Below, one piece after another: positions 27,051-49,211 of a stretch of 64,000 nt of DNA. A program made the position numbers and the translations under genes. Below the pieces are notes generated by a model. That model was not told the origin of the DNA. It did no database searches and saw nothing but the letters and a program-made list of their open reading frames with translations. This stretch comes from an uncultured Gammaproteobacteria bacterium (GTDB taxonomy: Bacteria; Pseudomonadota; Gammaproteobacteria; UBA9214). The stretch spans positions 96,001-160,000 of the forward strand of contig CAVYZN010000006.1 of NCBI GenBank assembly GCA_963773065.1, read 5' to 3'. Position 1 is the first letter of the stretch, and each line of letters begins with the position of its first letter.

Positions 27051-27217
27051 GAAATCCTCCTCGTTGGACGTGAGTGAACTTGGGGAGCCTGGACAGTATG
27101 ACTTCCGCATGAAGCGGCTAACCCCCGCCTCAATCAATAGCAGGTTAGCATGTAGCGACCAGCGCCACAGCGTACACTGTAAAGGTTTGGGAATCCCTGA
27201 TTACGCCTGTCATTCCC

Positions 27218-27262
27218 GATGGAGTTGACGCGGTTATGGTCGATTATCGCGATTATCACTAG
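27218..27262 (+). pseudogene. higB: Last 14 codons of a HigB-type toxin
   Basis: DGVDAVMVDYRDYH* directly upstream of higA. Confidence 0.7.
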
Positions 27263-27273
27263 GGCAGCAGACC

Positions 27274-27564
27274 ATGGACAAAATGCATAATCCCCCGCAT
27301 CCGGGTGAAGTTCTGAAAGACGGCGTCTTCGTCGACACCGGTGTCACGGTCACGGCAGCGGCCAAGGCGCTGGGAGTGACGCGCGCGGCATTGTCGCGCG
27401 TGCTGAACGGCAAGGCCGCCGTCAGCGCCGATATGGCCTTGCGCCTCTCGCAGTGGTTGAACACCGGCCCGGAAGTCTGGCTCAACATGCAGGCCGCCTA
27501 TGACTTGTGGCAGGCCAGGCAGAAGCCTCGCCCGAAGATCAAACCGTTGCACCGTGCCGCGTAG
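27274..27564 (+). CDS. higA: HigA-family antitoxin (XRE HTH)
   Basis: MHNPPHPGEVL, LGVTRAALSRVLNG, MALRL, WLNMQAAYDL. Confidence 0.92.
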   Translation: MDKMHNPPHPGEVLKDGVFVDTGVTVTAAAKALGVTRAALSRVLNGKAAVSADMALRLSQWLNTGPEVWLNMQAAYDLWQARQKPRPKIKPLHRAA

Positions 27565-27583
27565 TGTCAGAAACGTGGTCTGA

Positions 27584-27748
27584 GGGGAAAAGGGGGAAAA
27601 GGGGACATTCTGGTTTAGGGGAAAAGGGGACATTCTGGTTTACGACCCGTGGCGGAGAAATGGGAGAAATGGGGACATTCTGGTTTACGACCCGTATTGC
27701 TGACAGGCGCGGATCGATATCGAAAAACCAGAATGTCCCCATTATTCC
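27584..27748 (+). repeat. Hairpin repeat A1: full copy 27663-27748 preceded by four truncated left-end copies
   Basis: 18-bp arms ATGGGGACATTCTGGTTT / AAACCAGAATGTCCCCAT. Confidence 0.95.
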
Positions 27749-27813
27749 CTCCGGCAAGCCCGAAAGACCTGCTAAACCAGACAGAAAAAACGTGGTCTGC
27801 CTGATGTCTTGTA

Positions 27814-27895
27814 GGGGAAAAGGGGACATTCTGGTTTACGACCCGTGTTGCTGACAGGCGCGGATCGATATCGAAAAACCAGAATGTCCCCATTA
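27814..27895 (+). repeat. Hairpin repeat A2
   Basis: Near-identical to A1, same orientation. Confidence 0.95.
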
Positions 27896-27992
27896 CCCAC
27901 TCCTGTGCGTGGTAATCATAAACAGATTGAATTAGCTCTGCGATTGTTTTTGCATCTTTGTCGCTGCTCATCTCAGTAGTAGAGCCTCATGA

Positions 27993-29521
27993 GAATGGCA
28001 CTTAATTAAGGATCAGTGAGGGACGTAGCATAGTCTAATGGTTTGAAACGGAAAGAGAAGGTTGGCTGGGACTGGTAAGATGTTTGTTGCGAAACATCGA
28101 CCCCACCAGCCCTGAGGCCAACCTTCATGAGTCACTGTAACCGTCCGTTGCTGTCACAACAACGTCGTCTTGCCAAACAGGTTCAGAAAATCGATGCCGA
28201 TCATTTCTTCAACCTGCTTACCGGCCCGCAGTTACTGGAGGCGGTGGAGGCGCAGCTCCCCGAGCACCGGGAACGGCACTATCCACCGACGCTGACGTTA
28301 TCGATGTTTTTAGGGCAAGTCATGAGTGCCGACGGCTCCTGTCAGAACACGGTGAATGAAGCGCTGGTCAATCGCCTGCTGAGCGGGATGTCTGTGGGCA
28401 GCGCCAACACCGGCGGCTATTGCATCGCGCGCCAGCGCTTGCCGCAGGAGATGGTGAGCACGCTGGCCCGCCAAACCGGGGCGTTGCTTGGCGTGTACAC
28501 GCCCACGGGGTGGTTGTGGGGCGGGCGGCACGTGAAACTGGTGGATGGCACGACGGTATCGATGCCGGACACCGAGGAGAATCAGGCGCGCTTTCCCCAA
28601 CCGGGGGGACAAGCCCCTGGCGTGGGCTTTCCGCTGGCGCGGCTGGTCGGGGTGATTTCCCTGTCCAACGGCGCGGTGCTCGATGCCGCCATGGGGCCGT
28701 ACCAGGGTAAGGGCACGGGTGAACATGGTCTGTTTCGAGGTCTCAAGGGGGCGTTTGTCGAAGGCGATATCATGCTGGCCGACAGCTATTATTGCAGTTA
28801 TTTCCTGATCGCCGACCTGCAGGGGCGCGGGGTGGACGTGCTGTTCGAGCAGCATGGCGCGCGCCATACGGATTTTCGCCGGGGAGAGCAACTTGGCGCA
28901 CGGGATCATTTGGTGCAGTGGTCCCGGCCTGCCCGGCCGGAGTGGATGAGCCGGGAGGAATACCACAGCTATCCGAAGCAGATCACGGTGCGCGAAGCGA
29001 ACATCGGCAAGAAAGTGCTGGTGACCACCCTGCTCTCGCCACGCAAAACCGCCAAGGCCGAGCTGGAAGCGTTGTTCCTGCAGCGCTGGCATGTGGAGCT
29101 GGATCTGCGCAACATCAAGACCACCCTCGGCATGGAAGCGTTAAGTTGCAAGAGCCCAGCGATGTGCGAGAAGGAAATGTGGGTCTACCTCCTGGCGTAC
29201 AACTTGATTCGGCTGCTGATGGCCGAGGCTGCGCTGCAGGCCAAGGTGGCGCCGCGCCAGTTGAGCTTCAAACATACGCTGCAGATTTGGGTGGCCTGGA
29301 GTCAACGGCAGTTTCTCTCAAGCACCAAAGAAGACACGGCGACCTTGTTCCTGCTCATTGCCCAAATACGGGTAGGAGAACGACCCGGCCGGGTTGAACC
29401 GCGGGCGGTCAAGCGCAGGCCCAAGCCTTATCCACACTTGAACAAACCTCGCTGGAAAGCCCGTCAGGACATCAGAAAACATGGGCATGCAAGGAAGCTT
29501 GAGCTTAATTAAGTGCCATTC
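27993..29521 (+). mobile_element. Complete IS4-family insertion sequence, 1529 bp
   Basis: 18-bp perfect TIR GAATGGCACTTAATTAAG; 11-bp target duplication GAGCCTCATGA (27982-27992, 29522-29532). Confidence 0.95.
28127..29512 (+). CDS. IS4-family DDE transposase
   Basis: LVDGTT, LADSYY, RWHVELDLRNIK (YREK-like), AYNLIR, PGRVEPRAVKRRPK. Confidence 0.93.
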   Translation: MSHCNRPLLSQQRRLAKQVQKIDADHFFNLLTGPQLLEAVEAQLPEHRERHYPPTLTLSMFLGQVMSADGSCQNTVNEALVNRLLSGMSVGSANTGGYCIARQRLPQEMVSTLARQTGALLGVYTPTGWLWGGRHVKLVDGTTVSMPDTEENQARFPQPGGQAPGVGFPLARLVGVISLSNGAVLDAAMGPYQGKGTGEHGLFRGLKGAFVEGDIMLADSYYCSYFLIADLQGRGVDVLFEQHGARHTDFRRGEQLGARDHLVQWSRPARPEWMSREEYHSYPKQITVREANIGKKVLVTTLLSPRKTAKAELEALFLQRWHVELDLRNIKTTLGMEALSCKSPAMCEKEMWVYLLAYNLIRLLMAEAALQAKVAPRQLSFKHTLQIWVAWSQRQFLSSTKEDTATLFLLIAQIRVGERPGRVEPRAVKRRPKPYPHLNKPRWKARQDIRKHGHARKLELN

Positions 29522-29844
29522 GAGCCTCATGATAATTCCATTGCGATAAGCATTCCGTCATGCCCAACGACAATTAGAGGGCTTAAAAATCGGGTCTGTC
29601 TTTCGACTTTTCGGTCATGTTTAAACATCGACCTTCTTGAATTCAGTAGGTTGTCTCCGTATAGCATGGCCTAAAAGGAAAAACAAACACAGCTCAAGGC
29701 TGTCGTTGAAGATCGTTTCGGTTTCTACGGTTATCGACTCAATCTTTTCCAGGGCCACTGCCTTTATCCCGGCCGGCACTGGAAATGCCGGGCCTGTTCG
29801 ATGCCGGCCATGTTCGTGAGCACCCGATTAGTCGCCCGGCACAA

Positions 29845-29862
29845 GCAAGCTCGCTCCTACAG
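29845..29862 (-). repeat. GTAG-type REP half copy
   Basis: TGTAGGAGCGAGCTTGC on the minus strand. Confidence 0.5.
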
Positions 29863-29977
29863 GAGGAATCTCGATGATTCGAGGTCAATTTTTAGAGTGG
29901 GGTATTGCGCTGACTTGCATTTTTCGGCATGGCTTCCGACAGCGGGTTCGCGCAGCACGGCCGCTACAACGCCGCTC

Positions 29978-30934
29978 TCATTCCTTGTCCACCGTGACGT
30001 TGAGATCGATCGCCTGCGCCAGTCCGGATTCGCCGGTCAGGCTGAAATAGCGGGAGAGTTCGTAGGTGAACTTCATCTTCCAGGCCTCGTTGAAGAAGCC
30101 GTAGAGGTACTCCACGTGGATCTTCGAGGTGAGTTGCTTGACGACGCTCACCATGCTCTCGCCTTCCGCGGCGCCGGACTCGACGCCGAGGTCCACGCCG
30201 AGCGCCTGGGTGATCTCCTTCGAGAGAGGGTTGCTGACGCCGAGCCCCGCGGCGGCGGCGATTGCCTGCGATTCGGTACTGCTGGTGGACGAGAGCGGCT
30301 TGCCGGTCAGGAGATAGGACATGGCCTCGGCCTCCGACATCACCGGATCGGAGTAGACCTGCGCGAGCGGCGACTTAAGCGTGCCCGTGATCATGATGCC
30401 GGCCACGACATCGCCGGAGGTGCGGGTGGCGCGGATGTCGAGCGCCGGATCATCCAGGGGTCCGGCGAACAGCAGCCGGCCCTTTTCGATGACGAGCTTC
30501 TGGCCATAGCCTTCATAGGTCCCCTTTTTCAGCTTCAGCACGCCATCGCCGACGATATCGCCCGTCGCCAGGCTGCGCAGCCGCAGGCTCCCACCGAGAT
30601 TCGTGGCCAACCCCAGCCCCTGGAAGCGCACGGCATCGCCGAGCTTCACATTGACGTCGATGACGAGCGCCGTCTTGCCCGCGCCGCGCTCCCCCGGCGG
30701 CACCGGGCCGTGGTCGCCGACGATCACCTGATCATCCGACACCCGCACCACGTTCTCGGGCAATTGCTTCACCTCGATCCTCGCCGTGGGGATGCCGACG
30801 TTGCCCTTGAGTTCGACACGGCGGGTGTCGCCGCTCAGCGTGAGCGCCGGGTCGGCCGTCACGTACGCCTCCGGCAGGCGCGCCACGCCGAACTCCCGGC
30901 CCTCGATGTCCAGGCGGAAGGGCCAGTGCGCCTG
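29978..30934 (-). pseudogene. tamB: Diverged second copy of the tamB 3' end (DUF490), 5'-truncated at repeat A3
   Basis: Colinear with 34726-35682; about 23 of 302 aa differ by eye; homology stops 4 bp from A3. Confidence 0.9.
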
Positions 30935-30938
30935 GCTA

Positions 30939-31020
30939 GGGGAAATGGGGACATTCTGGTTTACGACCCGTGTTGCTGACAGGCGCGGATATCGAAAAAC
31001 CAGAATGTCCCCATTATTCC
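30939..31020 (+). repeat. Hairpin repeat A3 (4-bp loop deletion)
   Basis: Same arms and loop as A1/A2. Confidence 0.95.
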
Positions 31021-31149
31021 CAGTGCTTCTATTAGATTGGCTCTTGCCTCTGCAATGGAATCGCCCTGGCTTGCTACGTCAAGCTCCGGGCAAAGTGATA
31101 CATAGCCATCGCCTTCCCTTTCGATGATTGCCGTTAGTTGCTTAACCAT
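31021..31149 (-). pseudogene. hicB: HicB-family antitoxin N-terminus, cut by repeat A3
   Basis: MVKQLTAIIEREGDGYVSLCPELDVASQGDSIAEARANLIEAL then repeat sequence. Confidence 0.85.
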
Positions 31150-31449
31150 AATGATTTCCTCATATTTGATTTGAGTGGCCGAACGCTCGGATGCTGGGAC
31201 AGCGGCGCCTCAGCGACAACGTTGCCTGGAATCCGTTGATACTCTGATTGGTGCTTCCTCCGCGATTTTCGGGCTTCGACAGGCATGCCCTCGTAAGCTT
31301 CCCCGTGTGTCGAAGTACGCGTCATCTCGGCGTCAGTGAACATGGGTACAAATACAGATGAGGGGCAGAGTAAATTTTTCCAGATATAAGCGGGAACGTG
31401 CTGAGACCCGATTTTTTTGGATGGTTCTTTGAAAGACAGATAGGATTTC

Positions 31450-31752
31450 TCACCATTTTTCTGGCTTGATAATTTTACGAAATTCTTCCGCCTTTTTTAG
31501 TGCTCTTTGGATTTCCTCTTGTGACGGTCTATTTTCATTCTCTCCTGCCTCAATTGCTTCACGCAACAACTGTGCAACCCTAAATTTTACGTATGTAGCT
31601 TCTGCCAAAGATTTATCGCCCGATGATTCCGCAAACGCTTTAAGCCAGAGACCCTCTCGAATTTCTCCGACCTTTATTTCATGAGCCACCACTTCATAAA
31701 GGCGTTCTTCAAGAGCCAGCAACTCATTAGAGTGATCTTCTGATCGTGTCAT
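31450..31752 (-). CDS. Hypothetical protein (AT-rich cargo)
   Basis: 100-aa ORF, GLWLKAFAESSGD...YVKFRV. Confidence 0.65.
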   Translation of the reverse strand: MTRSEDHSNELLALEERLYEVVAHEIKVGEIREGLWLKAFAESSGDKSLAEATYVKFRVAQLLREAIEAGENENRPSQEEIQRALKKAEEFRKIIKPEKW

Positions 31753-31876
31753 GGTATTTGTGTAATTCGTGAGCTATTAGCCTAATTTTCTGTCATTCCC
31801 ATAAATTTATCATCGTTCTTGAACTGCTGATCTCATGAGCTAAATGCAGCGAATTTCAATCAGCCAATATCGTTGT

Positions 31877-32443
31877 TCATAATTCGTCATCGCCATCAAA
31901 CCTGTTCTCGTAACCGGGCAGGTTTCTCAACCCAAGTTCGTCTGTGTCAAATTCTTTATCCCTGTTATCGATAATCTTGGTATCTACAACAACACCCTCC
32001 ACAATTTTTAGATGCATTTCTTCTTCGTGAACAGAACCGAACCCCATGTGTACGTAATGCAATAATTTTCCTCTCGGAATCCTTATGACACCGGAAAACC
32101 AATCCGCCAAGATAGGGGTCTCCGTGCGCATCTTGTATATCCCCTTTATTGAAACGAGATAGAACTTTCCGTTTTTAATTTCCCATGTTCCTATATATCG
32201 CCGCCAGCATGCCGTAGAAAATACGCTGAATTCCTCGCGCCTAGCATTCATTGCTTCCCGTGCCTCAGGCGACGACTCTTCCCTTGCCCTGGCTGCCATT
32301 GCACGAAGATCCTCGTATAACGCGTTAAACTCATTATTATCGAGCTTTCTGATCCTTGTATCATTTTCTGGTAATGACGGACAGAACGCCATTCCTGTCC
32401 ATTCGCCATCTAATATCAAGTTTTCATTCAATTGCGCTGTCAT
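31877..32443 (-). CDS. Hypothetical protein (AT-rich cargo)
   Basis: MTAQ start, STACWRRYIGTWEI, ADWFSG, YVHMGF. Confidence 0.75.
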   Translation of the reverse strand: MTAQLNENLILDGEWTGMAFCPSLPENDTRIRKLDNNEFNALYEDLRAMAARAREESSPEAREAMNARREEFSVFSTACWRRYIGTWEIKNGKFYLVSIKGIYKMRTETPILADWFSGVIRIPRGKLLHYVHMGFGSVHEEEMHLKIVEGVVVDTKIIDNRDKEFDTDELGLRNLPGYENRFDGDDEL

Positions 32444-32466
32444 AGATTGGTTCCACAATTATCGTG

Positions 32467-32546
32467 ATTCAGAGGGACAATATATCGCCACCCAGTGAGT
32501 CAAGATAAATACGTATACTGTCCACGGTATTCTATTCGGTATTCGG
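32467..32546. repeat. Degenerate GGACA...TGTCC hairpin with stuttered end (second family)
   Basis: GGGACAATATAT...GTATACTGTCC followed by ACGGTATTC-TATTC-GGTATTC. Confidence 0.6.
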
Positions 32547-32650
32547 ATACGCCGCATGAATAACATCGAGGCTTGCGTTGCGCGATACTTGAAAGTTGTC
32601 GTAATACTTCTTATTTTCTTCATGAAAAGCGTCATTCGGGTCAGGCCCAG

Positions 32651-33412
32651 CTACCCGCCGTCTTGCCAGCGCCTCATATGCGAAAGAATCCGTTGTTCAG
32701 CCTTTATACGTATCCGTTCCTCAATTCGTTCGGAATAGGCATCAAGATTCGCCTGCGCATCCGCATCACCATTATTTGCCGCTAGACTCAACCATACATA
32801 GGCTTCAATGAGATCGTTCTCTCCACCTGGCCCCGTAACATACAGATAGCCCAACATTGTTTGCGCCGGTACAAAATTCTGCTCGGCAGCGCGGTGATAC
32901 CATGTCTTAGCGATGCTTGTATCTCTCGGGACACCATGCCCCTCTTGGTACATTCCGCCGAGATGGTACTGTGCAAGGGGGTCTGATAAGTCTGCTGCCC
33001 TTCGAAAATATATCACGGCTTCCTCGAAATTCTGTGGCTCGCCCAATCCGCGCAACAGGTTCATACCCAGATTAACCGATGCGCTGATGCTTCCCCCTGC
33101 CACTGCCAGGCGAAACCACCTGCATGCCTCGGCATAGTCTTGGGGCACACCCTCACCGCGGTTGTATCGTATGGCAAGACTGTTTTGTGCTTCTACATGA
33201 CCTTGCTCCGCTGCAAGGCGAAGCCATTTGCAGGCTTGTTTGTAATCTGGATCTCCAAGAAGAACGCGAGATGGTGATCCCACTTGACCTTGAACGTACA
33301 TACCACCCAACTCGAACTGTGCTTCGGGATTGCCAGCTTTTGCCTTATGAACAATTAGGTCGAACTGAATCTCTGACTCAGGTGAATCAAATGTTGGTCG
33401 GTTTCTCAACAT
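32651..33412 (-). CDS. SEL1-like repeat protein
   Basis: Repeated AQxxLG.MY..G.GVP.D...A..W...AA.Q; AGGAG RBS before ATG at 33412. Confidence 0.9.
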   Translation of the reverse strand: MLRNRPTFDSPESEIQFDLIVHKAKAGNPEAQFELGGMYVQGQVGSPSRVLLGDPDYKQACKWLRLAAEQGHVEAQNSLAIRYNRGEGVPQDYAEACRWFRLAVAGGSISASVNLGMNLLRGLGEPQNFEEAVIYFRRAADLSDPLAQYHLGGMYQEGHGVPRDTSIAKTWYHRAAEQNFVPAQTMLGYLYVTGPGGENDLIEAYVWLSLAANNGDADAQANLDAYSERIEERIRIKAEQRILSHMRRWQDGG

Positions 33413-33423
33413 GACTCCTATGT

Positions 33424-33483
33424 GGGCTACGCACTCCATAAGCCGCGCGCGGTCAGCGAGTCGGTTGCATGGACATGTTGGGC
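33424..33483 (-). other. Integron attC-like site
   Basis: GCCCAAC (R'') ...TCCATGCAACCG / CGGCTTATGGA... GTAGCC (one T short of GTTRRRY); 60 bp spanning the end of one gene and ending just before the next. Confidence 0.65.
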
Positions 33484-34469
33484 ATTGTGATGTTTCTTAC
33501 ATAAAGGCGCTCCGCAACGTTTCGAACGTGTGAAACACAGTTAAACGCTTGCTCACGAGCATTATTTGGAATTATCACCGTTATATTGTTTCTTTTCCTT
33601 GGGTGCATGACATCATTGCCGGAATCAACCACATACTCCATTTGTTCGCGAATGTCCGGCAACACCGCTGAAACCAAAGACGTCAATATGTTGAGACGCT
33701 TTGGCGATTTCTTCCCACCATCCTCTGAGTACGCGTCGATGCCTATGCTGCTATGTCTATCGAGTATCATATACTCCAGCAACGAACGAGAGAGCGACAT
33801 CACGGCAAGCCAATTGCCAAATACAAAAGAGTCATATATTTCTCGGAGTCGGCTTCGAACGTGCGAGGGAAACGATGATGTTGCCTTCGGGGTTATGACT
33901 GGTTTTAGAAGGGCGAGATTCTCCAACCAAGAATCCGGGCGGTAAAAACGAGCCGCCAACAATTTAAGAGCCCTTTCATAACCCCACTCCGTAAACACAG
34001 TTCCATCAAATTCGTCCAGTATCGATTCGCATCTTTCAACGGCTGCCAGCATAAATGTTCGAACACTATCGTCTTCTGACGCATCCTCGTAGTCCGATTC
34101 TTTATTTGGAGTAGAGTCCATCGTTATCAGCCCTAGCTCTCCTAGGTCCAACACAATAGGATCGATCTGCCAGTGGAGATTCATGAGTGTGTCGAGGTTG
34201 TCCGCTAACACGTCGGAATAGAAGGTCGCAAGACCTTCAGAAACTTGCTGGATGGGCACATCCTCCTTCATTAGAGGTATTTCTAGGTGTTCCTTTACCT
34301 CCCGCAAATGAACGTACAATCGAAGAGCAAAATCGCGCAGCACAGACCGTTCTTTCTCAGAGAACAGCTTCTTGCCCCTCAACTCTGACAGGGGGACCAC
34401 CTTGACAATTTCGCCGTAAATCTGCTTACAGATGGCAAGATGGTAGTTAAGCGCAGCATTTGTTGTCAT
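33453..34469 (-). CDS. Protein with C-terminal DUF4145/HEPN-like domain
   Basis: EIYDSFVFGNWLAVMSLSRSLLE...SGNDVMH. Confidence 0.6.
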   Translation of the reverse strand: MTTNAALNYHLAICKQIYGEIVKVVPLSELRGKKLFSEKERSVLRDFALRLYVHLREVKEHLEIPLMKEDVPIQQVSEGLATFYSDVLADNLDTLMNLHWQIDPIVLDLGELGLITMDSTPNKESDYEDASEDDSVRTFMLAAVERCESILDEFDGTVFTEWGYERALKLLAARFYRPDSWLENLALLKPVITPKATSSFPSHVRSRLREIYDSFVFGNWLAVMSLSRSLLEYMILDRHSSIGIDAYSEDGGKKSPKRLNILTSLVSAVLPDIREQMEYVVDSGNDVMHPRKRNNITVIIPNNAREQAFNCVSHVRNVAERLYVRNITMPNMSMQPTR

Positions 34470-34517
34470 TGCGAGATCACCTGGAAGGCATAGTTGGGCA
34501 GCATTACTTCCGTGGGC

Positions 34518-34602
34518 GGGAAATGGGGACATTCTGGTTTACGACCAGTGTTGCTGACAGGCGCGGATCGATATCGAAAAACCAGAATGTCCCCATTATT
34601 CC
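34518..34602 (+). repeat. Hairpin repeat A4
   Basis: Near-identical to A1-A3, same orientation. Confidence 0.95.
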
Positions 34603-34725
34603 TACGGCATTGGTCATCCCGTCGGGTTTTTACACAGGAGTTATTCCTTGAGAGACTATGGCAAACGGCGCGCAGGCGGTCAATTGCAGGGGCGGGTTCC
34701 GAGACGATGCGCCGCGGCCACTCCG

Positions 34726-37700
34726 TCATTCCTTGTCGATGGTGACGTTGAGATCGATCGCCTGCTCCAGTCCCGATTCGCCGGTCAGGCTGAAATAGCG
34801 CGAGAGCTCGTAGGTGAACTTCATCTTCCAGGCCTCGTTGAAGAGGCCGTAGAGGTACTCCACGTGGAGCTTCTGGGTGAGTTGCTTGCCGACGCTCACC
34901 ATGCTCTCGCCTTCCGTGGCGCCGGACTCGGTGCCCACCTCCACGCCGAGCGTCTCGGCGATCTGTTTCGCGAGGGGGTTACTCGCGCCGAGCCCCGCCG
35001 CGGCGGCGATCGCCTGCGATTCGGTGCTGCTGGTGGACGAGAGCGGCTTGCCGGTCAGGAGATAGGACATGGCCTCGGCCTCCGACATCACCGGGTCGGA
35101 GTAGACCTGCGCGAGCGGCGACTTGAGCGTGCCCGTGATCATGATGCCGGCCACGACATCGCCGGAGGTGCGGGTGGCGCGGATGTCGAGCGCCGGATCA
35201 TCCAGGGGTCCGGCGAACAGCAGCCGGCCCTTTTCGATGACGAGCTTCTGGCCATAGCCTTCATAGGTCCCCTTTTTCAGCTTCAGCACGCCATCGCCGA
35301 CGATATCGCCCGTCGCCAGGCTGCGCAGCCGCAGGTTCCCCCCGAGATTCGTGGCCAACCCCAGCCCCTGGAAGCGCACGGCATCGCCGAGCTTCACATT
35401 GACGTCGATGACGAGCGCCGTCTTGCCCGCGCCGCGCTCCGCCGGCGGCACCGGGCCGTTCTCGCCGACGATCACCTGATCATCCGACACCCGCACCGCG
35501 CTCTCGGGCAGTTGCTTCACCTCGATCCTCGCCGTGGGGATGCCGACGTTGCCCTTGAGTTCGACACGGCGGGTGTCGCCGCTCAGCTTGAGCGCCGGGT
35601 CGGCCGTCACGTACGCCTCCGGCAGGCGCGCCACGCCGAACTCCCGGCCCTCGATGTCCAGGCGGAAGGGCCAGTGCGCCTGCGGGTCGAGCCGCACCTC
35701 GCCCTGCAGGCTGACCGCGCCCTGGTCGGAGCGGGCCGTGCCGGACAGCGCTACCTGCTCCGTGCCGTTGCCTTGCGCGCGCAGTCCGATGTCGGTCAGC
35801 TCCAGACCGAGACCGGGAATCCGCAGCTTTCCCTGCACGAGTTCCGCGTCACCGCTCAGGCGCGGTGCGCCCACGCTGCCCTGCAGCCCGAGCTTCGCGG
35901 CGGCGGAATCCGCCCGTTGCGTTCAGTTCGGTGGAGAGGGCGTTGATGAAAGTGATGTCCGGCACCGCCAGGTCCAGTTCGCCGGCCAGCGGATAGTCGT
36001 CTATCGTTTTCCCGCGCAGTGTCACCTCGACCCTGCCCTGGGCATGTCCCTCCGCCAGGCCCACGCGAACATCCGCGCTGGCGGTTTCCCCCCCGTAGCG
36101 CGCACTCACCTCGGCGTCCCGGTAGATGCTGGTGTACGGCGATTCTTCCCCGGTGTCGATCTGCAAAGTTCCCTGCGCGGAGCGGGCCTTAAGGCGCGCC
36201 CCGATTTTGCCGTTCGAGCCGGCGGCGGCATCGGCCTCGACATCGAGCACGCCCTCGATGCGGCCGGGGGCATCGAGCAGGCCGGCCAGCGGCGCGAGCG
36301 GCAGCTCATCGAGCCGGGCCTTGGCGCGCCAGCCGCCTGCCGCCTGCCACGCGCCCTCCAGGCAGGCGCTGGCGCGCTGCGCGACCCAGCAGGCGGCGAC
36401 CGGCTCCAGCCGGTTTGCGCTTAAGTCCAGCCGGACCGGCTCCCGCAGCCGCCAGTCGCCGAGTGTCTTGAGATCGAAGTCGGCTTGTGTGAGGCTGCCG
36501 CGCCAGCGCCCGCCGGCGTAGCCCCCCTGCAGCGTGACGAGCGCGCTGCCCGCCTCCTCCGCCGCCGTGAGTTGCAGCCGGTGCCGTTCGAGCCAGCCCT
36601 GGGCATCCAGTCTCAGGCGCGAGGCGGTCTCCCCGCCGAGGCGCAGATCCGTCGCCTCGATGAAGGCCGTCGACCGCCGCGGCTCCTGTTTGTCGAGGAC
36701 GGCCTGTCCCTTAAGCGCGCCGATGGCATTGTCCTGGTAACGCAGCCCCGTCCCCGACCACTCGATGCGCCCGCCGGGCTGCGCCGGGTCGCCGTGCAGC
36801 GAACCCGAGCCCTGGATGCGCCCGGCCAGACCGGGCGCGAGCAGCGCGAGGTTCGGGGCATCGACGCGGAAATCGACGTCCAGTTGCTGCCAGCCAGCCG
36901 GCCCGAGAGCGTGAGGCTGTTCTCCCCCGAACGGATGACCAGACGATCGCTCTCGACGCCGCCGGCGCGAAACGTCACGTCCCCCAGCGCGCTCACCGGC
37001 CGCTCGCGCAGCGTCCCCTCCAGCCGGGCATCCTGCAGTTGGACGCGGTAGGCATCGTCGCGGACCTCGACCAGCAGCCGGGTCTTAAGGCCGAGTTTTC
37101 CCGGCCAGTCCGGCCACCGCAGGCCCGGGTTGACGCCGCTCGCGTCGATGCCGAGGTCGATGGCGAGGCCGGCCTTCCAGTCGAGCGTGCCGGTGGCGGC
37201 GAGCCGGCCATCCAGGGCCGCGACCGCCAGTCGCTCGAACACCAGCCCGTCGGCCGTCCCGCTGCCCTGCGCCTCTACCGCGAGCGGCGGGATTTCCGCG
37301 CCCTCGAAATCGCCGGCCAGCGTGTAGCGGTAATTCGCGGGTACACCGTTCAGCGTATAACGGCCGCGTGCGCTGCGGTATTCCGCGGCGCCTTGCAGCG
37401 GCCAGCGCAGCCCGTCCCATTCGCCCTCCAGATGAGACGGCCGGGACGCCTGCCTCGAAGCGCACTTCGCCCCGCGTGGCGATGCGGAAGGGCGCGGCGA
37501 GCCGGTGATCCAGATGCAGGATATGCAGGTCACCGTCGAGCGTGGCATGTCCGGCGGCTTCCACGCCGTCGGGCAGGCGGCCGCGCCAGTCGAGCAAGGC
37601 CGCGAAGGTATAGGGGGAGTGCAAGGCGGCCCGGCCGATCAGCTCCGCCGTGACGCCTGCCGCCGTCACGCGGAAGCGGTTCACGCGCAGCCCGGAGACG

Positions 37701-38190
37701 GGGCCGGCATGGGCGGACAGCTCCAATTCATCGATCACGGTTTCCTGCGCGCCGATCTGCAGGACCAGGCGCCGGATGCTCAGCTCGGCGATATCGAGGG
37801 AGAGCGGCAACGCAATCCGCTCGGGCGGGGTGAACGGAGCGGCGTCGGCATCCGCGGCGGGCGCGCGGTAGACGGCATCCTCGATCGTCAGGCGGCGCAG
37901 CCGAATGCCGCCGCGCAGCAGACCGGCGGGATCGATCGCCAGTTCAACGCGGCCGAGCCTGCAGGCTGGTGTCGTCCTGCCGGTAGTCGATGCCCTCGAT
38001 CACCAGGCCCGACAGCAGGCTGCCGGCGATATGCTGGATGACCAGCGTGCCGGGCGCGTAGGCCGCGGCCCGCTCGATCAGCCAGCGGCTGCCCGCGGGG
38101 CTTGCCAGGAGGGCGGTCACCAGCAGCAGGATCGCCGCCGCCAGGCCCAGCAGGACGCCGACCCCTCTCGATAAGTCCGCGCCAGCGCAT
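34726..38190 (-). CDS. tamB: Translocation and assembly module TamB (multiple frameshifts)
   Basis: Downstream of tamA; N-terminal TM anchor; C-terminal DUF490 (DDPALDIRA, EAMSYLLTGKP). Confidence 0.85.
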
Positions 38191-38196
38191 CACTGT

Positions 38197-39949
38197 CTAC
38201 AGATCCGGGCCCATGCTGAAATGGATGCGAAACAGCTCGTCGCTGTCCGTGAGCGGATGGGCGATATCGAGGCGCACCGGCCCGACCGGCGAGCGCCAGC
38301 GGATGCCGAAGCCGACGCCGGTCCGGGGATCGACATGCGTCTGGTCGAACGCGTTGCCGGAATCGGCGAAGACGGCCACCGCCCATTTATCCAGCAGCCG
38401 CCGCTCCAGCTCGACGCTGCCGACCAGCAGGTTCCTGCCGCCCACGACATCGCCCTGATCGTCCTTAGGACCGAGCGACTGGTAGGCATAGCCGCGGATG
38501 CTGTTATCGCCGCCCGCGAAGAAGCGCACCGAGGCCGGCAGTTCCTCGAAGGCGTTCATGGCGGTCATCCCAACATCGGCACGCGTTATAAACCGCAGCC
38601 GCGCCGGCAGGGACAGCACCGCCTTGGCAGTGCCGATCGCTTGCGCAAAGCTCACGCTGGAGATCACCTGCTCGGAGGCGCCGCGCAGCTTGAGACCCAG
38701 GCGCAGACCCTTGCTCGGGTAGAGCCGGTCGGCGGCCAGCACTCTCGACCAGCCCATCCCCGGCATCAGCAGCGTGGCTTTGCCCTTGTCATTGCCCACC
38801 TCGAACTCTTCATGACTCAGGGTGAGCGAGCGTTCCTTGCTCCAGCCCTGGTTCGGCACGCGATACCAGGTGACGGATGCCGCGGTGGTGTCCGATATCG
38901 ATGTGTCGGTGTCTTCATGTTGGTAGCCGGTCTCGAATTTCAGCTTGTCGGTCACCGGATTCTTCAGCGGAATGGTGTAGGCGGCCGTGATTTTGGACTC
39001 CACCTTTGAGAGCGAGGTTTCCGCCGAAAACACATGCCCCTCGCGGTTGACCCGCCGGTCCTGATACCCCACGCCGATGCGCGGTCCCGTATCGGTGGCA
39101 AAGCCGATTTTGCCCGTGTAGCGGTTGCGTTTGGACGGCGTCAGCACGAGCTCGGTCGGTATCGCGCCATCCTCGGCCTCGTCGATATGGGGTTGCACGT
39201 AGGCGTTGCGGAAATAGCCGCTGCCGGTGAGTGCGCGCGTGGTCTTGGTGAGCAGGGTCGCGTCGTAGGGCTTGCCCTGCTGGTAGGCGAGAAAGCGGTC
39301 CAGCAGTTGCGGTTCGATGATGTCCTGTTCGCGCCGGATCGGCCCAAAGCGAAAGCGCGGCCCGGAGTCGTAGTGCAGGATGATGTCGGCGATCCCCCGC
39401 CCGGGATTCACGCGCAGTTGATTTTGCGTGTAGTGTCCCTTGACATAACCGCGCGTGCTGGCCAGCTCCGCGATCTGACGCTTGAGGTCGGTATAGATAT
39501 CCTGGCGCAGCGGCTGCCCCGCCTGGTCCATGGCCTTCTTCACCAGCGCGTCGAAGGCGGGATCGGCGGCGGCATCTCCGCTGATGATGACATCGATGAC
39601 GCCGAAGCTGACCCGCGGCCCGGGCACGATGGTGAAGGTGGCCCGCCAGCAGGCGCCCTCCGCCGTGGCCGGTTCAAACCGGCTGGCGATCGTCGCCTGG
39701 TAATAACCGAAGGCGCGCAGGGCATCGCGCGCCTCGCCGTCGGCCTGCTTGAGGCGCCCGCGCAGGCGCCACAACGGCGCATCACAGGTTTCCTTAGAGA
39801 GCGACAGGTAGGCCCTGACATTGGCGGCGACATCGCCCTTGACGCCTTCGATGGTGATCGCCGGCGCTTCGCCGCGGGGCGAGGCGGGACCGGCAGTAGA
39901 GCAGCGCCAGCAGCAGGACGAGCGCCGTGCCTCGTGGCGGTCTCCTCAT
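38197..39949 (-). CDS. tamA: Omp85-family TamA (5' frameshift)
   Basis: ALRAFGYY, POTRA region, GFATDTG, RFFAGGDNSIRGY, RWRSPVGPVRLDIA. Confidence 0.92.
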
Positions 39950-40028: not shown

Positions 40029-42402
40029 CTATGCCGCGGGTTCAGGGTGGCTTGCCGGGACGCGGGCATCGCGCCCGATGGCGGGGCTGTTGCGGATCTG
40101 CACATTGCGCTGCAGGAAGGGGATCTCGATACCGGCCTCGCGGAACGCGGCGTCGATGGCGAGATACAGGTCGCTTTGGGTCAGCACGCGCTTGTCCACA
40201 TCACGGATGTAGCAAGTCAGTGCAAAATTGAGCGCGCTGTCCCCGAAGCCGCGGAACAGCGCCCTCGGTTCAGGTATGCCGGGATAATTATTCATCACCA
40301 GGGGGTGCTTATTGGCCAGATCCACCAGGATCTGCATGACTTTGGCGGTATCCGACCCGTAGGCCACCCCCACCGGCACCACCACCCGCCCCCAGGGGTC
40401 GCTCAGCATCCAGTTGGTCACCTGTCCGGCGATCAGCTCGGAATTCGGCACGATCACATCGGCCCGGTCGAAGGTCTGGATCTGGGTGTAACGGATGCTG
40501 ATCTTTTTCACATAGCCTTCCGTGTTACCGACCATGATCCAGTCGCCGATACGGATGGGGCGTTCCACCAGCAGAATCAGGCCGGAGACGAAGTTGTTGA
40601 CGATATTCTGCAGGCCGAAGCCGATGCCGACCGAGAGCGCGCCGGCGATGATCGCCAGATTGGTGAATTCCACGCCGGCCACGGACAGCGCCACCAGGAT
40701 GGCCAGGGAGATACCGAGATAACCCGTTGCGGTCGCCGCCGCATCGCGCGCGCCTCGATCCAGGCGGGTCTTCTTGAGCCAGTACTGCTCCAACTGGCGC
40801 TTGAACCAGCCGCTGATCGACACCATCACCGAGAAGAGGGCAATCGCCATGACCACGCGCAGGGGCGCCACGTGCAGACTGCCGATCTCGAAGCCCTCGA
40901 CGACATAGTGCACCGCGGCGGCGTAGACTTTGTCCGAGTAGCCCCAGATGCGGAACAGCAGCAGGAGAAATCCGCCCCACAGCACCAGGTGGCTGATGGC
41001 CCGCAGCCATACCAGCCCCGGCACGTACTCCCCTGCTTTCAAACCGAACCGGCTCCTGAAGCGCTGTTGCCAGCGGTAACGCCCCTCGTCCATGCCGTCA
41101 TAGAGTTCGTCTCATGACCCGGCCGAGCAGGAAAATGATCGCGAACAGCAGCAGGGTACTGACCAGACCGCCGATGATCAGGCCGGAGAGATTGCGGTAG
41201 CCGGCCCACTCCGCCATCAACCCGGCGAACAGCGCCAGGATGATCAGCACGCGCACCGGCGCGGTATGCCGCCATACCGGAAGTTCGCCCACCAGCCACA
41301 GCACCCAGCCGAGATTGATCACCAGCACCGTGATGAACACGGTGCGGGTGAGCAGCAGCGCCGCTTCCGGGAGCTGTTGCACCAGGATGGTGGAAAATAT
41401 CAGGAAACCGATCAGCAGCAAGGATGCCAGCACGTAAAGGCGGTGGGCAAGCGCGCGGCAGACGGACTCCGGCACCGGCAGGTACAGGCTGGCCGGCGCC
41501 GGGGGTTTGAACAGGCCGCGCACCAGCACCAGGGCCAGCACGTAGAAGGTGAGGCCCAGACCGAGCAGGAGCACGTTGGGCAGCGGCTCGACGCCTAGCA
41601 GCAGCACCAGCAGCGTACCGCTGGCGACGGCCAGCGGCAGCAGCAACGGCAGATAGTGGGCCAGCGTGGCGCCGAAGGCTACCATCGCCAAGAAGATGAG
41701 ATCGTCCTTGTCCGTGGGCTGGGGGAGCACGGCGAGCAGCCTGCGTTTGCTCACCTGCCCCAGGGCCGCGCCGAGCAGGACCAGGGAACCCAGCAGCACC
41801 CACTGCATACCACCGACCTGTTCCAGCCCGCGGGTATCGACCACGAAGGACTTAACGGCAGCGAGCCACTCGCTGATCTTGCCCCAGTCGCCCTTCATCA
41901 GATCGGTAAAGGTGCGGTCACGGGCCAGTATCTGCTGCTTGAAGATCCGATTCTGGTGCTCCGCGACCGTGGCCTCCAGTTCATCGCCGTTGACGCGCAG
42001 CAGGCGGCAGACGGTCAGCCGTTTTTCGATGACGCCCCTGTTCTTGTTCAGCTCGTGCCGCGCCCTGGTGACCGAGGCATCCTCCCCCGCCACCGGGCTG
42101 CCGAGTGTTTTGAGATCTTCGGCCAGCTTCGCGCTGTCCTGCTCGGCATGCTCGATACACTGCACCGCCAGCCTGCGTATGCCGTCGATATCCTTCGCCA
42201 TGACCTCGAAGTCGTTGATCGCGGACGCGGTTTCGGACAGTTGCGTCTTGATCGCCTGCAGTTGCTTCTCGGCCGCCGCGATCGAGTTATCCTCGGCCGC
42301 CGCCGTCACGCACGGCAAGGCCATCCAGATCGCGAGCAGGACGCGCATCAGCATCCGGGCCGGCGCAAGCAGGGGGGTTTGCATCAACTGACCGCCGATC
42401 AT
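40029..42402 (-). CDS. Large MscS/MscK-like mechanosensitive channel (frameshift near 41100)
   Basis: Coiled-coil plus TMs, then GALSVGIGFGLQNIVNNFVSG, VPNS, VGVAYGSD, IEIPF. Confidence 0.88.
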
Positions 42403-46521: not shown

Positions 46522-46962
46522 TCAGCCGTTGAGGTGCGTGCGGGTCCAGCGCACGATGTCCGGCGCGCCCATGGCGCCCGCCTGGCGCGCCAGTTCCTGT
46601 CCATGGTGAAACAGGGCCAGAGTCGGAATGCTGCGGATGCCGTAACGCGCGGCGATGGACTGCTCGATCTCGGTATTGAGCTTGGCCAGCCGCACCCGCG
46701 GCTCAAGCTGCGAGGCCGCCTGCACGAAGGCCGGCGCCATCATCTTGCAGGGTCCGCACCAGGGCGCCCAGAAATCGACCAGCACGGGGATATCGTTGCG
46801 CTCGAGCTGTTTCTGGAAATCGGCGCCGGTCAGTTCCAGCGGATGGGCGGTAAAGAGCGCCTGGTGGCATTTGCCGCACTTCGGGCCGTCACCGAGCCGC
46901 GCCCCGGGTATCCGGTTTACCGCGCCACACCCGGGGCAGACGATGTGAAGGGCATCGTTCAT
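46522..46962 (-). CDS. trxC: Thioredoxin 2
   Basis: CPGC...CGKC zinc finger, WCGPC. Confidence 0.93.
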   Translation of the reverse strand: MNDALHIVCPGCGAVNRIPGARLGDGPKCGKCHQALFTAHPLELTGADFQKQLERNDIPVLVDFWAPWCGPCKMMAPAFVQAASQLEPRVRLAKLNTEIEQSIAARYGIRSIPTLALFHHGQELARQAGAMGAPDIVRWTRTHLNG

Positions 46963-47022
46963 GGTTTGCGTTCCTCCGTTATCGACCGCCAACGGTCGCC
47001 GGCAGGCGTGTCCGCCTGCATG

Positions 47023-47345
47023 TCATCGGGACCCGGATTCGAATCGCCGCAGTTGGGCGCGCAGGGATTCGAGTTCATCCAGCAGGTCCAGCACCAGGGC
47101 CACACCGGCAGGATTGATGCCCAGGTCCCGCTGCAGATGCATGGCGATGCGGGCGCGTCCCAGGCTGGGGCCCGGGAAACACCATTCATCAGGTCGCGGC
47201 CCACGGGTTCCAGTATGCCTTCGTCGACCAGCTCGACGATCCGCTCGATGCGCACGGAACACGCATAACTCAGCTCATCCAGCGTCAGGGTCGTGGTTTC
47301 ATCCAGGATCAATCCCGTCAGTACCGGTAGCTTCTCGTCTTGCAT
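47023..47345 (-). CDS. cbpM: Chaperone modulator CbpM (frameshift)
   Basis: LTLDEL...ELVDEGIL; LQRDLGINPAGVALVLDLLDE; follows cbpA. Confidence 0.85.
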
Positions 47346-47351
47346 GGCTGC

Positions 47352-48284
47352 TTACACTCCCAGTCGGGATCGTGGATTGAACGCCAGTTCCTGCTGCATG
47401 GTGCGGTAGAACTCCCGGGCGGCCTCGGTTTCCGCCGGCGGCAGCGCGATCTGCAGCTCCACATACAGGTCGCCGGCCGGATTCCCCGGAATGCCGCGCC
47501 CCTTCAGGCGCAGCTTCCGGCCCGCCGCCGAACCCGCGGGTACGGTCAGGTCGACGACCCCTTCCGGCGTCGGGACCTTGACCTTGGCGCCCAGCGCCGC
47601 CTCCCAGGGCGCCAGCGGCAGGTCCAGGTAAAGATCACGCCCGTCGGCACGGTACAAACGGTGCGGCTTGAATTCCACTTCCAGATACAGGTCGCCGGCC
47701 GGCCCGCCGCCCAATCCCGGCGTGCCCTGACCGGCCAGCCGGATATGCTGGCCTTGCCTGACCCCCTTGGGGATGCGCACGCTCAGGGTGTGCTCCCGGA
47801 TGCGTACATGGCCCTGCCCGTCGAGCTGCGGGGCGTGCAGGGTGATGGTGCGGGTCGCGCCGTGGTAGGCGTCCTCCAGATCGATCAGGATCCTGGCATG
47901 GTGATCCTCGCCGCGGGCGTGAAAGGTCGCGCCGCCGGGACGCCCCGCCCCGGCCCGCCCGAAGAGGGATTCGAAGAAGTCGCTGAAGGCGCCGCTGTCG
48001 GCGTAACCGCCGCTGAACTCGAAACCGGCATCCCAGTCAGGCGGCGGCCGGAATTCCTGCCCCGCCTTCCAGTTGGCGCCGAGTTGATCGTAGGCGGCGC
48101 GCTTTTCCGGATCCTTGAGCACCTCGTAGGCTTCGCCCAGTTCCTTGAACCGCGCCTCCGCATCCGGTTCCTTGCTGACATCCGGATGGTATTTGCGCGC
48201 GAGTTTGCGGTAGGCGCGCTTGATCTCGTCCTGGGTGGCATCGCGCGCCACGCCCATGATGGTGTAATAGTCTTTGAACTCCAT
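47352..48284 (-). CDS. cbpA: DnaJ-class curved DNA-binding protein
   Basis: J domain with HPD; FSDFFESLFG; no zinc finger. Confidence 0.92.
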   Translation of the reverse strand: MEFKDYYTIMGVARDATQDEIKRAYRKLARKYHPDVSKEPDAEARFKELGEAYEVLKDPEKRAAYDQLGANWKAGQEFRPPPDWDAGFEFSGGYADSGAFSDFFESLFGRAGAGRPGGATFHARGEDHHARILIDLEDAYHGATRTITLHAPQLDGQGHVRIREHTLSVRIPKGVRQGQHIRLAGQGTPGLGGGPAGDLYLEVEFKPHRLYRADGRDLYLDLPLAPWEAALGAKVKVPTPEGVVDLTVPAGSAAGRKLRLKGRGIPGNPAGDLYVELQIALPPAETEAAREFYRTMQQELAFNPRSRLGV

Positions 48285-48422
48285 GAGTTACTCTCGCCGC
48301 CAACCCACTCGCGCCGGCCGCGCTATCGACCGGGCAAGTATGCGAGAATAGCGGCCGGCGGACACGTACACAAGGCGCCCGCCGGCCTATCCGGAATTTG
48401 CATTGGGAGGAGATCACCGATC

Positions 48423-49211
48423 ATGGCGAAGAGAATGTTCACGGCCGTATTGTTCACACTGACGGCGCTAGTCGCGGCGCTGCCGGGCCGGGCCGACACG
48501 ACCATCCGGCTGGACGGTTCACTGAATGCGGCGAACGCCCTCATTCAGGTAAAGGACAACATGGCGCGCCTGGCGCAAGCCAGCCAGCCCGCCTACGTGC
48601 TCTATGACAAAACCCGCGACGTCGCCATTTATGTCGATACGGCCAAGCGGACCTATACCGAGATCGACCAGCAAACGCTGAAGGGATACGCCGGGATGGC
48701 ATCCGCGCTGCGCGAGCAGCTGCAAATGCTGCCGCCCGCGCAACGCGCCCTGCTCGAGGAGCGCATGGGCGGCATGCTGGGCCTGCCGCAGGGCGGGTTG
48801 CCCGAGCTCGGCGAGCTGCAAACGCTCGCGCGCGGCAACCGCACCATCGCCGGCTTCCACTGCCGCTTGTACGCCCTGCTGAAAGCCCGGCAGCCCATCG
48901 GCGACGTCTGCCTGAGCTCCGCCGCCGAGGCGGGTGTTTCACCGGCCGATTTCGCCACCCTGATGGCCATGATCGATTTCCTGCGCCATGCGGCCGGCAC
49001 GGCCCAGGAACTGACCGGCGGCCTGACCGAGAGCACCCGCCTGCTGCTGAGCGGATTGCCGGGGGTGCCGGTGGCGGCGCGGGATTACCAGAGCCGCCAG
49101 CAGTTCATGGTGGCCGGCGTCTCCGGCAAACCACTGGATGCCGGTCTCTTCACCGGCTACCGGGGCTACCGCCAGCAGGACCTGATGGAGGCGATAGCGC
49201 TGGGCCGTTGA
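48423..49211 (+). CDS. Exported hypothetical protein (DUF4412-like)
   Basis: Signal peptide; RTIAGFHC..Y motif. Confidence 0.6.
   Translation: MAKRMFTAVLFTLTALVAALPGRADTTIRLDGSLNAANALIQVKDNMARLAQASQPAYVLYDKTRDVAIYVDTAKRTYTEIDQQTLKGYAGMASALREQLQMLPPAQRALLEERMGGMLGLPQGGLPELGELQTLARGNRTIAGFHCRLYALLKARQPIGDVCLSSAAEAGVSPADFATLMAMIDFLRHAAGTAQELTGGLTESTRLLLSGLPGVPVAARDYQSRQQFMVAGVSGKPLDAGLFTGYRGYRQQDLMEAIALGR

Follow-up and report, generated by a model that had tools for sequence, protein, structure and literature searches.

This analysis concerns a 64,000-nucleotide (nt) stretch of the genome of an uncultured gammaproteobacterium of the lineage UBA9214 (the window; positions 96,001 to 160,000 of contig CAVYZN010000006.1, assembly GCA_963773065.1), and a set of hairpin-forming repeats within it. 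A first-pass annotation of the window had picked out positions 27584 to 34602 as a candidate undescribed DNA-capture locus, in which four near-identical direct repeats join fragments of unrelated genes. The repeats themselves are where that annotation placed them: four co-oriented direct copies of about 85-90 nt lie on the forward strand at 27663-27752 (A1), 27814-27903 (A2), 30939-31028 (A3) and 34517-34606 (A4), the last being intergenic and 119 nt past the stop codon of tamB. In ungapped comparison with A1 over 90 nt, A2 is 93% and A4 92% identical; the value of 61% for A3 results from a 4-nt deletion in its loop and becomes 93-94% when gaps are allowed, and the last base of the A3 hairpin, at its right outer edge, is 31020. 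Each copy was folded as single-stranded DNA and compared with 200 shuffled sequences, which had a mean of about -9.5 kcal/mol. The predicted folds are stable, at -24.2 (A1), -24.5 (A2), -27.9 (A3) and -25.1 kcal/mol (A4), with z-scores of -6.6, -6.2, -8.1 and -7.3, respectively, and none of the 200 shuffles folded as well.

Each copy is a REPIN-like doublet, in which two inverted units surround a variable loop. The unit measures about 25 nt and reads roughly GGGAAWAAT-GGGGACATTCTGGTTT, where GGGGACATTCTGGTTT is the 16-nt arm and conservation reaches about 9 nt past the arms (left edge GGGRAAAW, right edge ATTATTCC(C)). Within the window, 10 matches to the arm are found, whereas 100 shuffles predict 0.01. 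Two partnerless left arms, both truncated on the 3' side, stand in tandem ahead of A1 (27583-27651, forward strand), at 27601-27616 and 27626-27641, and the second of them retains 11 nt of loop. The block formed by these solo arms and A1 (27568-27803) is bracketed by a 12-nt direct repeat, AAACGTGGTCTG. A congener, G004, with a higA gene 96% identical to the one at the left border of the repeats, carries AAACGTGGTCTG once and no hairpin, and comes closest to providing an empty site for the window.

To the right of A4, full-length tamB occupies 34726-38575 on the reverse strand. A displaced copy of its last 957 bp (tamB', 29978-30934, reverse strand; PF04357, 160.8 bits) lies directly to the left of A3, and on the other side of A3 stands hicB' (31021-31149, reverse strand), the first 43 or so codons of a 73-codon HicB-type antitoxin gene, of which the 3' part and hicA are missing. 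That A3 and A4 enclose about 3.5 kb of AT-rich, co-directional cargo holds good: the G+C (GC) fraction of this stretch is 0.42-0.51, compared with 0.64-0.73 in the flanking tamB sequences, and the cargo is foreign by composition. It contains four co-directional open reading frames (ORFs; 31450-34469, reverse strand) for proteins of 100, 193, 262 and 338 amino acids (aa). The 262-aa protein is a Sel1-repeat protein (PF08238, 150.5 bits); the 338-aa protein was found neither in the 53 other genomes of the family that formed our comparison set nor in a metagenome scan, and has two relatives in a search of 5.8 billion proteins. PADLOC returned no convincing match on the cargo. The neighborhood of tamB differs in the congeners, of which G002 and G003 carry there a gene found on contig C5 of the source genome (G000; 3.84 Mb in 33 contigs, to which all C-numbers refer), and the region beyond the 3' end of tamB is an island that varies among strains. 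The tamB gene is readable in four pieces in alternating frames (tblastn with a congener TamB, residues 1-1278 covered), and rpoB (G000:C8:162363-166585) is split into three frames. These two cases point to frequent indel errors in the assembly consensus, and apparent frameshifts in the source genome are therefore not to be read as pseudogenes.

A dispersed hairpin family and its transposase gene

The arm is scattered widely over the source genome, where GGGGACATTCTGGTTT has 30 exact matches and 40 with at most one mismatch, compared with none for the reversed arm used as a control. With up to two mismatches 47 arms are present, and about 20 inverted doublets, with loops of 12-63 nt, lie on 10 contigs. 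The frequency of the flanking 16-mer is described as a mark of REP (repetitive extragenic palindromic) association (Bertels et al., 2017, PMC5581495), and by the figures given there the repeat is far above chance, with 30 exact copies against about five expected at most. Hairpin copies within a cluster are co-oriented, and the clusters sit in variable, low-GC regions. Loop variants are local, such that for 14 of the 17 copies sharing a contig with another copy the closest loop is found in the same cluster. Hairpin orientation was compared with GC skew at seven loci or clusters (three consistent, two inconsistent, two near zero), and the compositional step at hairpins is 0.091 against 0.041 at random positions, to which we attach little weight as the null was drawn from random and not from intergenic positions.

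On C11 the same arm is found in inverted orientation at 147768(+) and 148638(-), bracketing an open 222-codon gene for a Y1 HUH transposase (C11:147976-148641), which is present in a single copy; the first-pass annotation had suggested looking for just such a copy beside a Y1 or RAYT gene. The 222-aa protein scores 63.6 bits on PF01797 (cut-off 23). The source genome has 10 Pfam Y1_Tnp matches, and seven further loci with Y1-type matches lack the arm. When one genome per species was scanned for relatives of the transposase, 80 loci were obtained, at which the proteins are 31-81% identical over the best aligned segment. A 12-nt core of the repeat (at most one mismatch) occurs within 29 of the 80 loci, mostly as an inverted pair, one copy some 55 nt ahead of the start codon and the other directly after the stop, and the hosts of these loci are annotated as Planctomycetota, Nitrospira, Methylomirabilota and Gammaproteobacteria. 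The core thus flanks homologues of the transposase across phyla, which makes the repeat the cognate end of this transposase clade.

The structural relationships of the protein point in the same direction. A search of solved structures with the single 222-aa sequence gave no match and a profile was needed; the profile of 31 homologues matched E. coli TnpA_REP best (4er8, E 1.7e-9), followed by ISDra2 TnpA at 1.9e-5. Across the 31 sequences H60 and H62 do not vary, and the conservation of Y120 reaches at least 90%. A C-terminal helix-turn-helix was not detected in the 222-aa protein, for which Pfam returns Y1_Tnp only. A second, weak RAYT-like trace, an N-terminal fragment with one stop codon (C23:177319-177438, 21.9 bits), lies 19 nt after the doublet on C23 and adjoins toxin-antitoxin-like ORFs and an IS110 transposase gene.

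RAYT-like genes flanked by terminal inverted repeats have been named TIRYTs, with the motif GGGGWSAS, and their repeats are described as moderately abundant families whose members stand alone, in dimers or in groups (Di Nocera et al., 2013, PMC3733652); most TIRYTs have been placed in TnpA_Y1 subclass 2.1, the counterpart of the RAYT Group 1 of Bertels (Quentin et al., 2018, PMC6006769). The GGGG[AT][CG]A core named in the first-pass annotation is the one published for the repeats that flank TIRYT genes (PMC3733652, PMC6006769). As the TIRtron/TIRYT type is presented in those accounts, our system shares with it a RAYT-like Y1 HUH gene between inverted repeats (with a core that fits GGGGWSAS at seven of eight positions), further repeats, single, dimeric or grouped, in the rest of the genome, and a gene family with a patchy distribution over phyla that include Planctomycetes. 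It differs in that subclass 2.1 genes are reported in PMC6006769 without REP-like structures nearby, the likeness being drawn here by the repeat and not by a tree; in that the flanking 16-mers of Group 1 average 12 copies in the survey of PMC5581495, compared with 30 exact copies here; and in that most arms here stand in long, stable hairpin doublets, a trait apart from the TIRYT repeats as outlined in these sources.

It is in these doublets that the family resembles REPIN/RAYT systems, which, in the description of Bertels and Rainey (2011, PMC3116915), are also built of inverted doublets of a short repeat that form hairpins, with one transposase gene flanked by the repeat and a strongly over-represented flanking 16-mer; the best solved-structure match, TnpA_REP (PDB 4er8), fits this as well. 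Unlike the REPINs of that account, the repeat has no GT[AG]G foot, a single unit is not palindromic, and the copy number is low, at roughly 20, with the copies clustered in variable low-GC regions and cluster-specific loop variants. A canonical GTAG-tagged REP was rejected as an identification on the grounds that the unit GGGAAWAAT-GGGGACATTCTGGTTT lacks this foot and is not self-complementary when single. A miniature inverted-repeat element of a DDE insertion sequence, which should show target duplications of fixed length and share its ends with a parent element, was also considered and rejected, given that at 19 of the 21 copies flanking direct repeats do not exceed chance and that the ends of the local IS4-family element are different.

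The hairpins therefore belong to the known TIRYT/RAYT type, with REPIN-like doublets, and are not an undescribed capture locus; the notion of an undescribed, locus-specific system gives way before an arm that is dispersed over 10 contigs and flanks a Y1 gene in inverted copies. Their identity as a REPIN/RAYT-type system of the TIRtron/TIRYT kind, as read from repeat and gene sequences, is very probable. The hairpins are non-autonomous and, by analogy with related enzymes, presumably mobilized in trans by the C11 enzyme via single-stranded DNA. The system provides a firmly anchored case from the TIRYT branch of the RAYT transposases, which has received little study: the terminal repeat stays beside the gene in hosts of several phyla and has given rise, in the source genome, to a modest number of long hairpin doublets.

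The first-pass annotation had gone further and proposed that a trans-acting single-strand nuclease builds an integron-like array at the hairpins. The first part of this proposal has found a candidate in the arm-flanked Y1 HUH gene of RAYT/TIRYT type on C11; the second part has fared badly. An integron-like or new site-specific capture system using the hairpins as attC-like sites would suit co-oriented hairpins placed round low-GC, co-directional cargo with toxin-antitoxin remnants, but the copies are dispersed genome-wide and flank the Y1 transposase gene, and no R'/R'' attC core was seen in an inspection by eye. The absence of an integrase noted for the locus holds for integron integrases: the best TIGR02249 match reaches 81.8 bits against a cut-off of 265, and the matches look like ordinary tyrosine recombinases. 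We consider this explanation close to refuted, with hardly any probability remaining to it.

Gene fragments at the hairpin edges

The claim that A3 joins a cut hicB to a cut copy of tamB is supported, with both breakpoints at the outer edges of the hairpin. A full-length hicB paralogue of 73 codons is present at C11:352405, and the window hicB' is 97.5% identical to it over the 40 codons compared; the homology ends at 31020, which is the outer edge of A3, and a contig of an unrelated metagenome run, X4, carries hicB on past this position. On the left, tamB' is cut on its 5' side 4 nt (GCTA) before the edge of A3. The two tamB copies (29978-30934 and 34726-35682) are 96% identical over 957 nt with substitutions only and no gaps; their similarity starts exactly at the stop codon and their downstream sequences differ. 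The divergence of 4.4% is unevenly spread, with identities per 100 nt of 93, 94, 83, 97, 100, 100, 98, 94, 99 and 100, giving a mosaic. Identities to three congeners fail to separate the two copies, and so do not tell which is the native 3' end. A 7-nt motif common to both flanks of A3, CCAGTGC, was set aside as within chance (random mean 6.3, 95th percentile 8). A3 does join pieces of unrelated genes.

A comparable arrangement is present on C15, where five co-oriented doublets occur within 9 kb. Here, C15:46264-46949 duplicates the 3' part of a Zn_peptidase gene (PF04228), with 94.5% identity to 48089-48773; the two copies become similar near the stop codon and cease to be so at 46949, some 5 nt short of the left edge of the doublet at 46954-47055. 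A gene for an Mrr_cat endonuclease lies between this doublet and the full Zn_peptidase copy, and a HicB-like ORF lies between two further doublets. The order common to the tamB and C15 loci is full gene, foreign gene or genes, hairpin, and displaced 3' gene end. Doublets that abut a truncated gene duplicate number two of 21. These two exact scars, each with a displaced 3' gene end set against the edge of a hairpin and foreign DNA between the gene copies, are the features most worth following. If they prove common, REPIN-type repeats would matter for the addition of islands next to conserved genes, possibly as portable homology or possibly by direct action of the enzyme.

A further duplicate on C15 is of another kind: 111 nt that cover the beginning of an M16 peptidase gene and the sequence preceding it (C15:39028-39138) recur at 42249-42359 with 96% identity, 210 nt past a hairpin doublet and ahead of ABC-transporter genes. 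This may represent a shared regulatory region.

Origin of the junctions

We favor the reading that the hairpins are REPIN-like doublets of the C11 RAYT/TIRYT-type transposase and that the scar at A3 was made by recombination, and we give this reading as a whole a probability of roughly 0.6. The particular route for the A3 junction, hairpin insertion followed by homologous recombination, falls somewhat short of an even chance. Along this route hairpin copies would have landed downstream of tamB, between and inside genes, and would later have served as portable homology. A hairpin would have inserted into hicB in one lineage and into tamB in another, and homologous exchange through a hairpin copy and tamB would have followed with DNA from a related strain that had diverged by about 4%. 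The imported DNA would have supplied both an intact 3' end of tamB and the low-GC cargo, leaving the native 3' end displaced as tamB'. Either a double crossover, or a circle formed by hairpin-hairpin recombination and integrated by one crossover, would lead to the same product. The donor DNA may have come from a co-occurring sister strain; the bin probably holds a second, related strain, since the whole of C18 (28.9 kb) is collinear with C19:24297-54659 at 80-96% identity. We infer the order of these events, and likewise the enzyme that would make the joins, from the arrangement of the products.

Repeats as join points have a reported precedent, as Shyamala, Schneider and Ames are said to have described in 1990 REP sequences at the joins of chromosomal tandem duplications in enterobacteria; our own literature search on REP join points returned nothing relevant. 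The likeness is a dispersed palindromic repeat exactly at a duplication join. The difference is that the enterobacterial duplications are tandem and lie between two resident REPs, whereas here one partial gene copy is found with foreign cargo between.

The recombination route requires that hairpins insert into genes, and simple insertions of the family do exist. The copy at C16:119010 (88 nt) occupies the place of 30 nt in the 3' end of a LysR gene, and the flanks are otherwise contiguous in G004. Genome G071, which has 42 arm matches, carries a 111-nt doublet in frame inside a 391-codon open frame (G071:C196, L171:1988-3163), and we conclude from this copy that the hairpin family lands inside genes. 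The G071 frame has repeated ...PDG/PNG... motifs, and three more doublets lie within 1.5 kb of it. Direct repeats beyond chance are missing from the flanks of 19 of the 21 copies; the other two have repeats of 12 nt, at the A1 block, and of 10 nt (CCGGAATCCT), bracketing a hairpin insertion at C15:41932-42056. Direct repeats of this size at hairpin insertions are unexpected for IS200-like transposition. The copies at C11:15599, C14:87431 and on C2 have flanks that are absent or non-contiguous in the congeners. Beside the C11:15599 doublet lies a palindromic repeat of about 65 nt (L069:1196-1260; C11:15695-15759) with dozens of matches in G004.

Several observations weigh against our reading. 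None of the four window copies has a clean empty site in the congeners, which lack the island, so that the contiguous flanks expected of an ordinary mobile repeat were not found for them. Two doublets on C18 stand at the edges of replaced segments, which measure 2.2 kb and 4.1 kb in C19, and are not plain insertions. On the side of the enzyme, the closest RAYT homologue in four congeners is 31-33% identical, yet three of them carry the arm, and G012 has 26 arm matches with no RAYT match at E 1e-20. The 222-aa protein scores 73.4-74.6 bits on NF047646 (REP_Tyr_transpos), narrowly under the curated 80 of a model that is an equivalog of the E. coli type. The repeat is without the canonical GT[AG]G foot, and its core, GGGGACAT, fits GGGGWSAS at seven of eight positions. 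The route needs hairpin insertions in both tamB and the Zn_peptidase gene, each of them rescued, which makes two such chains of events in one genome. Finally, we infer transposition as such by analogy, from the family to which the transposase belongs.

The layout of the two scars is what brings direct capture by the transposase into consideration. In complex class 1 integrons, as laid out in PMC3575428, a truncated 3' conserved segment (3'-CS) is followed by ISCR1, a variable region and duplications of the 3'-CS, and the succession of full gene, cargo, hairpin and 3' partial duplicate at tamB and on C15 is of this type. Both systems would involve an HUH-family enzyme, with cargo beside the element and a partial duplicate of a neighboring segment on the far side; ISCR1, in the terms of the same account, differs in having its own Y2 rolling-circle transposase, oriIS and terIS, whereas here a 90-nt hairpin would depend on an enzyme in trans. 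An ISCR or IS91 element was looked for, and the four PF04986 matches (C28, C30, C32 and C9) all lie away from the window and the C15 locus. A capture model for ISCR1 was reportedly put forward by Toleman in 2006.

Transferred to the hairpins, capture would mean that the enzyme nicks the outer edge of a single-stranded hairpin and joins its 5' end to an unrelated 3'-OH, after which a circle of hairpin, neighboring DNA and part of tamB enters tamB by one homologous crossover. Both breakpoints of A3, and that at C15:46949, lie within 0-5 nt of a hairpin outer edge, as such nicking would predict, and the head-to-tail series of truncated solo arms ahead of A1 has the look of successive joins at one edge. 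TnpA_REP is described as cleaving and rejoining REP DNA in the review PMC6006769, and the locus-specific loop variants, nearest within the same cluster in 14 of 17 copies, would also agree with capture. Set against this are the restriction of the layout to two of 21 doublets, the simple insertions on C16 and in G071, and the other local or tandem duplicates of 92-95% identity that have no family hairpin at the junction; insertion and ordinary recombination could also yield every feature, and nothing requires an enzymatic cut-and-join. We therefore hold capture to be an unlikely origin of A3. The wider proposition, that the RAYT/TIRYT enzyme is a trans-acting gene-capture engine whose hairpin-bounded circles, with cargo and a piece of a host gene, re-enter by one crossover, would have re-entry restore the host gene and leave the old 3' end as a scar; this is distinctly unlikely. 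If true, domesticated-looking REPIN systems would be island builders and a miniature, trans-acting counterpart of ISCR1.

The recombination reading, like capture, supposes that the junction exists in a cell. An assembly chimera would remove this premise: two strains about 5% apart would have been mixed, with the tamB end of one strung onto the island of the other. The bin has a contamination of 6.3%, C18 is a haplotype-like copy of C19, rpoB in three frames betrays an error-prone consensus, and the 92-95% tandem duplicates at C11:211242-219165 and C28:8180-18227 could be stacked haplotypes. The public sequencing runs are of little help in this matter, as even the best of them contained a fraction of 0.20 of the sampled words, the majority of which fell in the IS4-family element of the window. 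Contigs built from four public runs consist mainly of this element and fragments, which neither confirm nor deny the junctions, and an exact 30-mer of hicB has no matches in the metagenome scan. An assembler would nevertheless have no cause to place its breaks exactly at hairpin edges in two separate loci, and the tamB pair, with its 957 nt free of gaps, has substitutions only. In addition, the 1.5-kb IS4-family element is present in three full-length copies and one partial copy that are 99% identical and are resolved inside contigs; this implies reads much longer than the 90-nt repeat, which makes a misjoin at the repeat unlikely. We give the chimera a slim chance.

Slimmer again is the chance that replication error, with no transposase, accounts for the junctions. 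Palindromes would stall forks and provoke template switching, producing local duplications joined at a hairpin. The 4.4% divergence of the tamB copies and their different downstream sequences are not explained by recent copying within a cell, and the cargo, foreign in composition, does not fit such an origin, notwithstanding that the hairpins are very stable as single strands and that two hairpin insertions are bracketed by direct repeats of 10 and 12 nt. A duplication unrelated to the family gives this explanation some further support, as the join of C11:211242-219165 is the loop of another palindrome (GTAGTAGTAG...CTACTACTAC). The source genome has other tandem or near-tandem duplicates of 3-5 kb at C28:8180-18227 and C27:116431-124087, which are, as is that on C11, 92-95% identical, and their joins are without a hairpin of this arm family.

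Other genes and elements of the window

Several further features accompany the hairpins. A 25-codon ORF start (MSSDKDAK..., 27897-27971, reverse strand) runs into A2, and was held to be a gene cut by this copy with its remainder lost. We could not confirm this: the ORF has no Pfam match and no relative in its own genome, and a DNA search of the 53 other family genomes gave a sole, unconvincing match of 24 nt (E 0.003). It remains a candidate only, with doubtful gene status.

On the left, the repeats are bordered by a higA antitoxin gene (27274-27564, forward strand; TIGR02607 antidote_HigA, 111.8 bits), which is 96% identical to a copy cut on its 5' side in G004. Homology to G004 stops at ...GTGGTCTG, just ahead of the repeats. 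Directly upstream of higA a short frame at about 27170-27262, ending ...DGVDAVMVDYRDYH*, resembles what would be left of a higB toxin gene at its 3' end; the rest of this putative gene is absent beside an NmrA-like gene. In G004, on its contig C21 (L042:2200-2250), the sequence TGTCCCCCATTCACTTCC precedes the 5'-cut higA and resembles a decayed right end of a hairpin, and a 110-nt fragment of tamB lies 120 nt further upstream.

Between the IS4-family element and tamB' is a spacer downstream of tamB' (29533-29977), which contains a piece of a dispersed repeat (29572-29729) with matches on C8, C32 and C17; a contig of run X4 puts 29649-29861 beside a tamB 3' end. The IS4-family insertion sequence spans 27982-29532 on the forward strand with its duplication included (element 27993-29521, transposase 28127-29512, NF033592 210 bits). 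Its 11-bp target duplication, GAGCCTCATGA, together with the 12-nt direct repeat round the A1 block, means that the statement that no target duplications are visible at the locus is not quite correct. Three further copies at 99% are found on C2, C4 and C32, and the element is an ordinary later insertion outside the hairpin system. It lies 97 nt from hairpin A2, and the copy on C2 lies 124 nt from the hairpin doublet at C2:94667.

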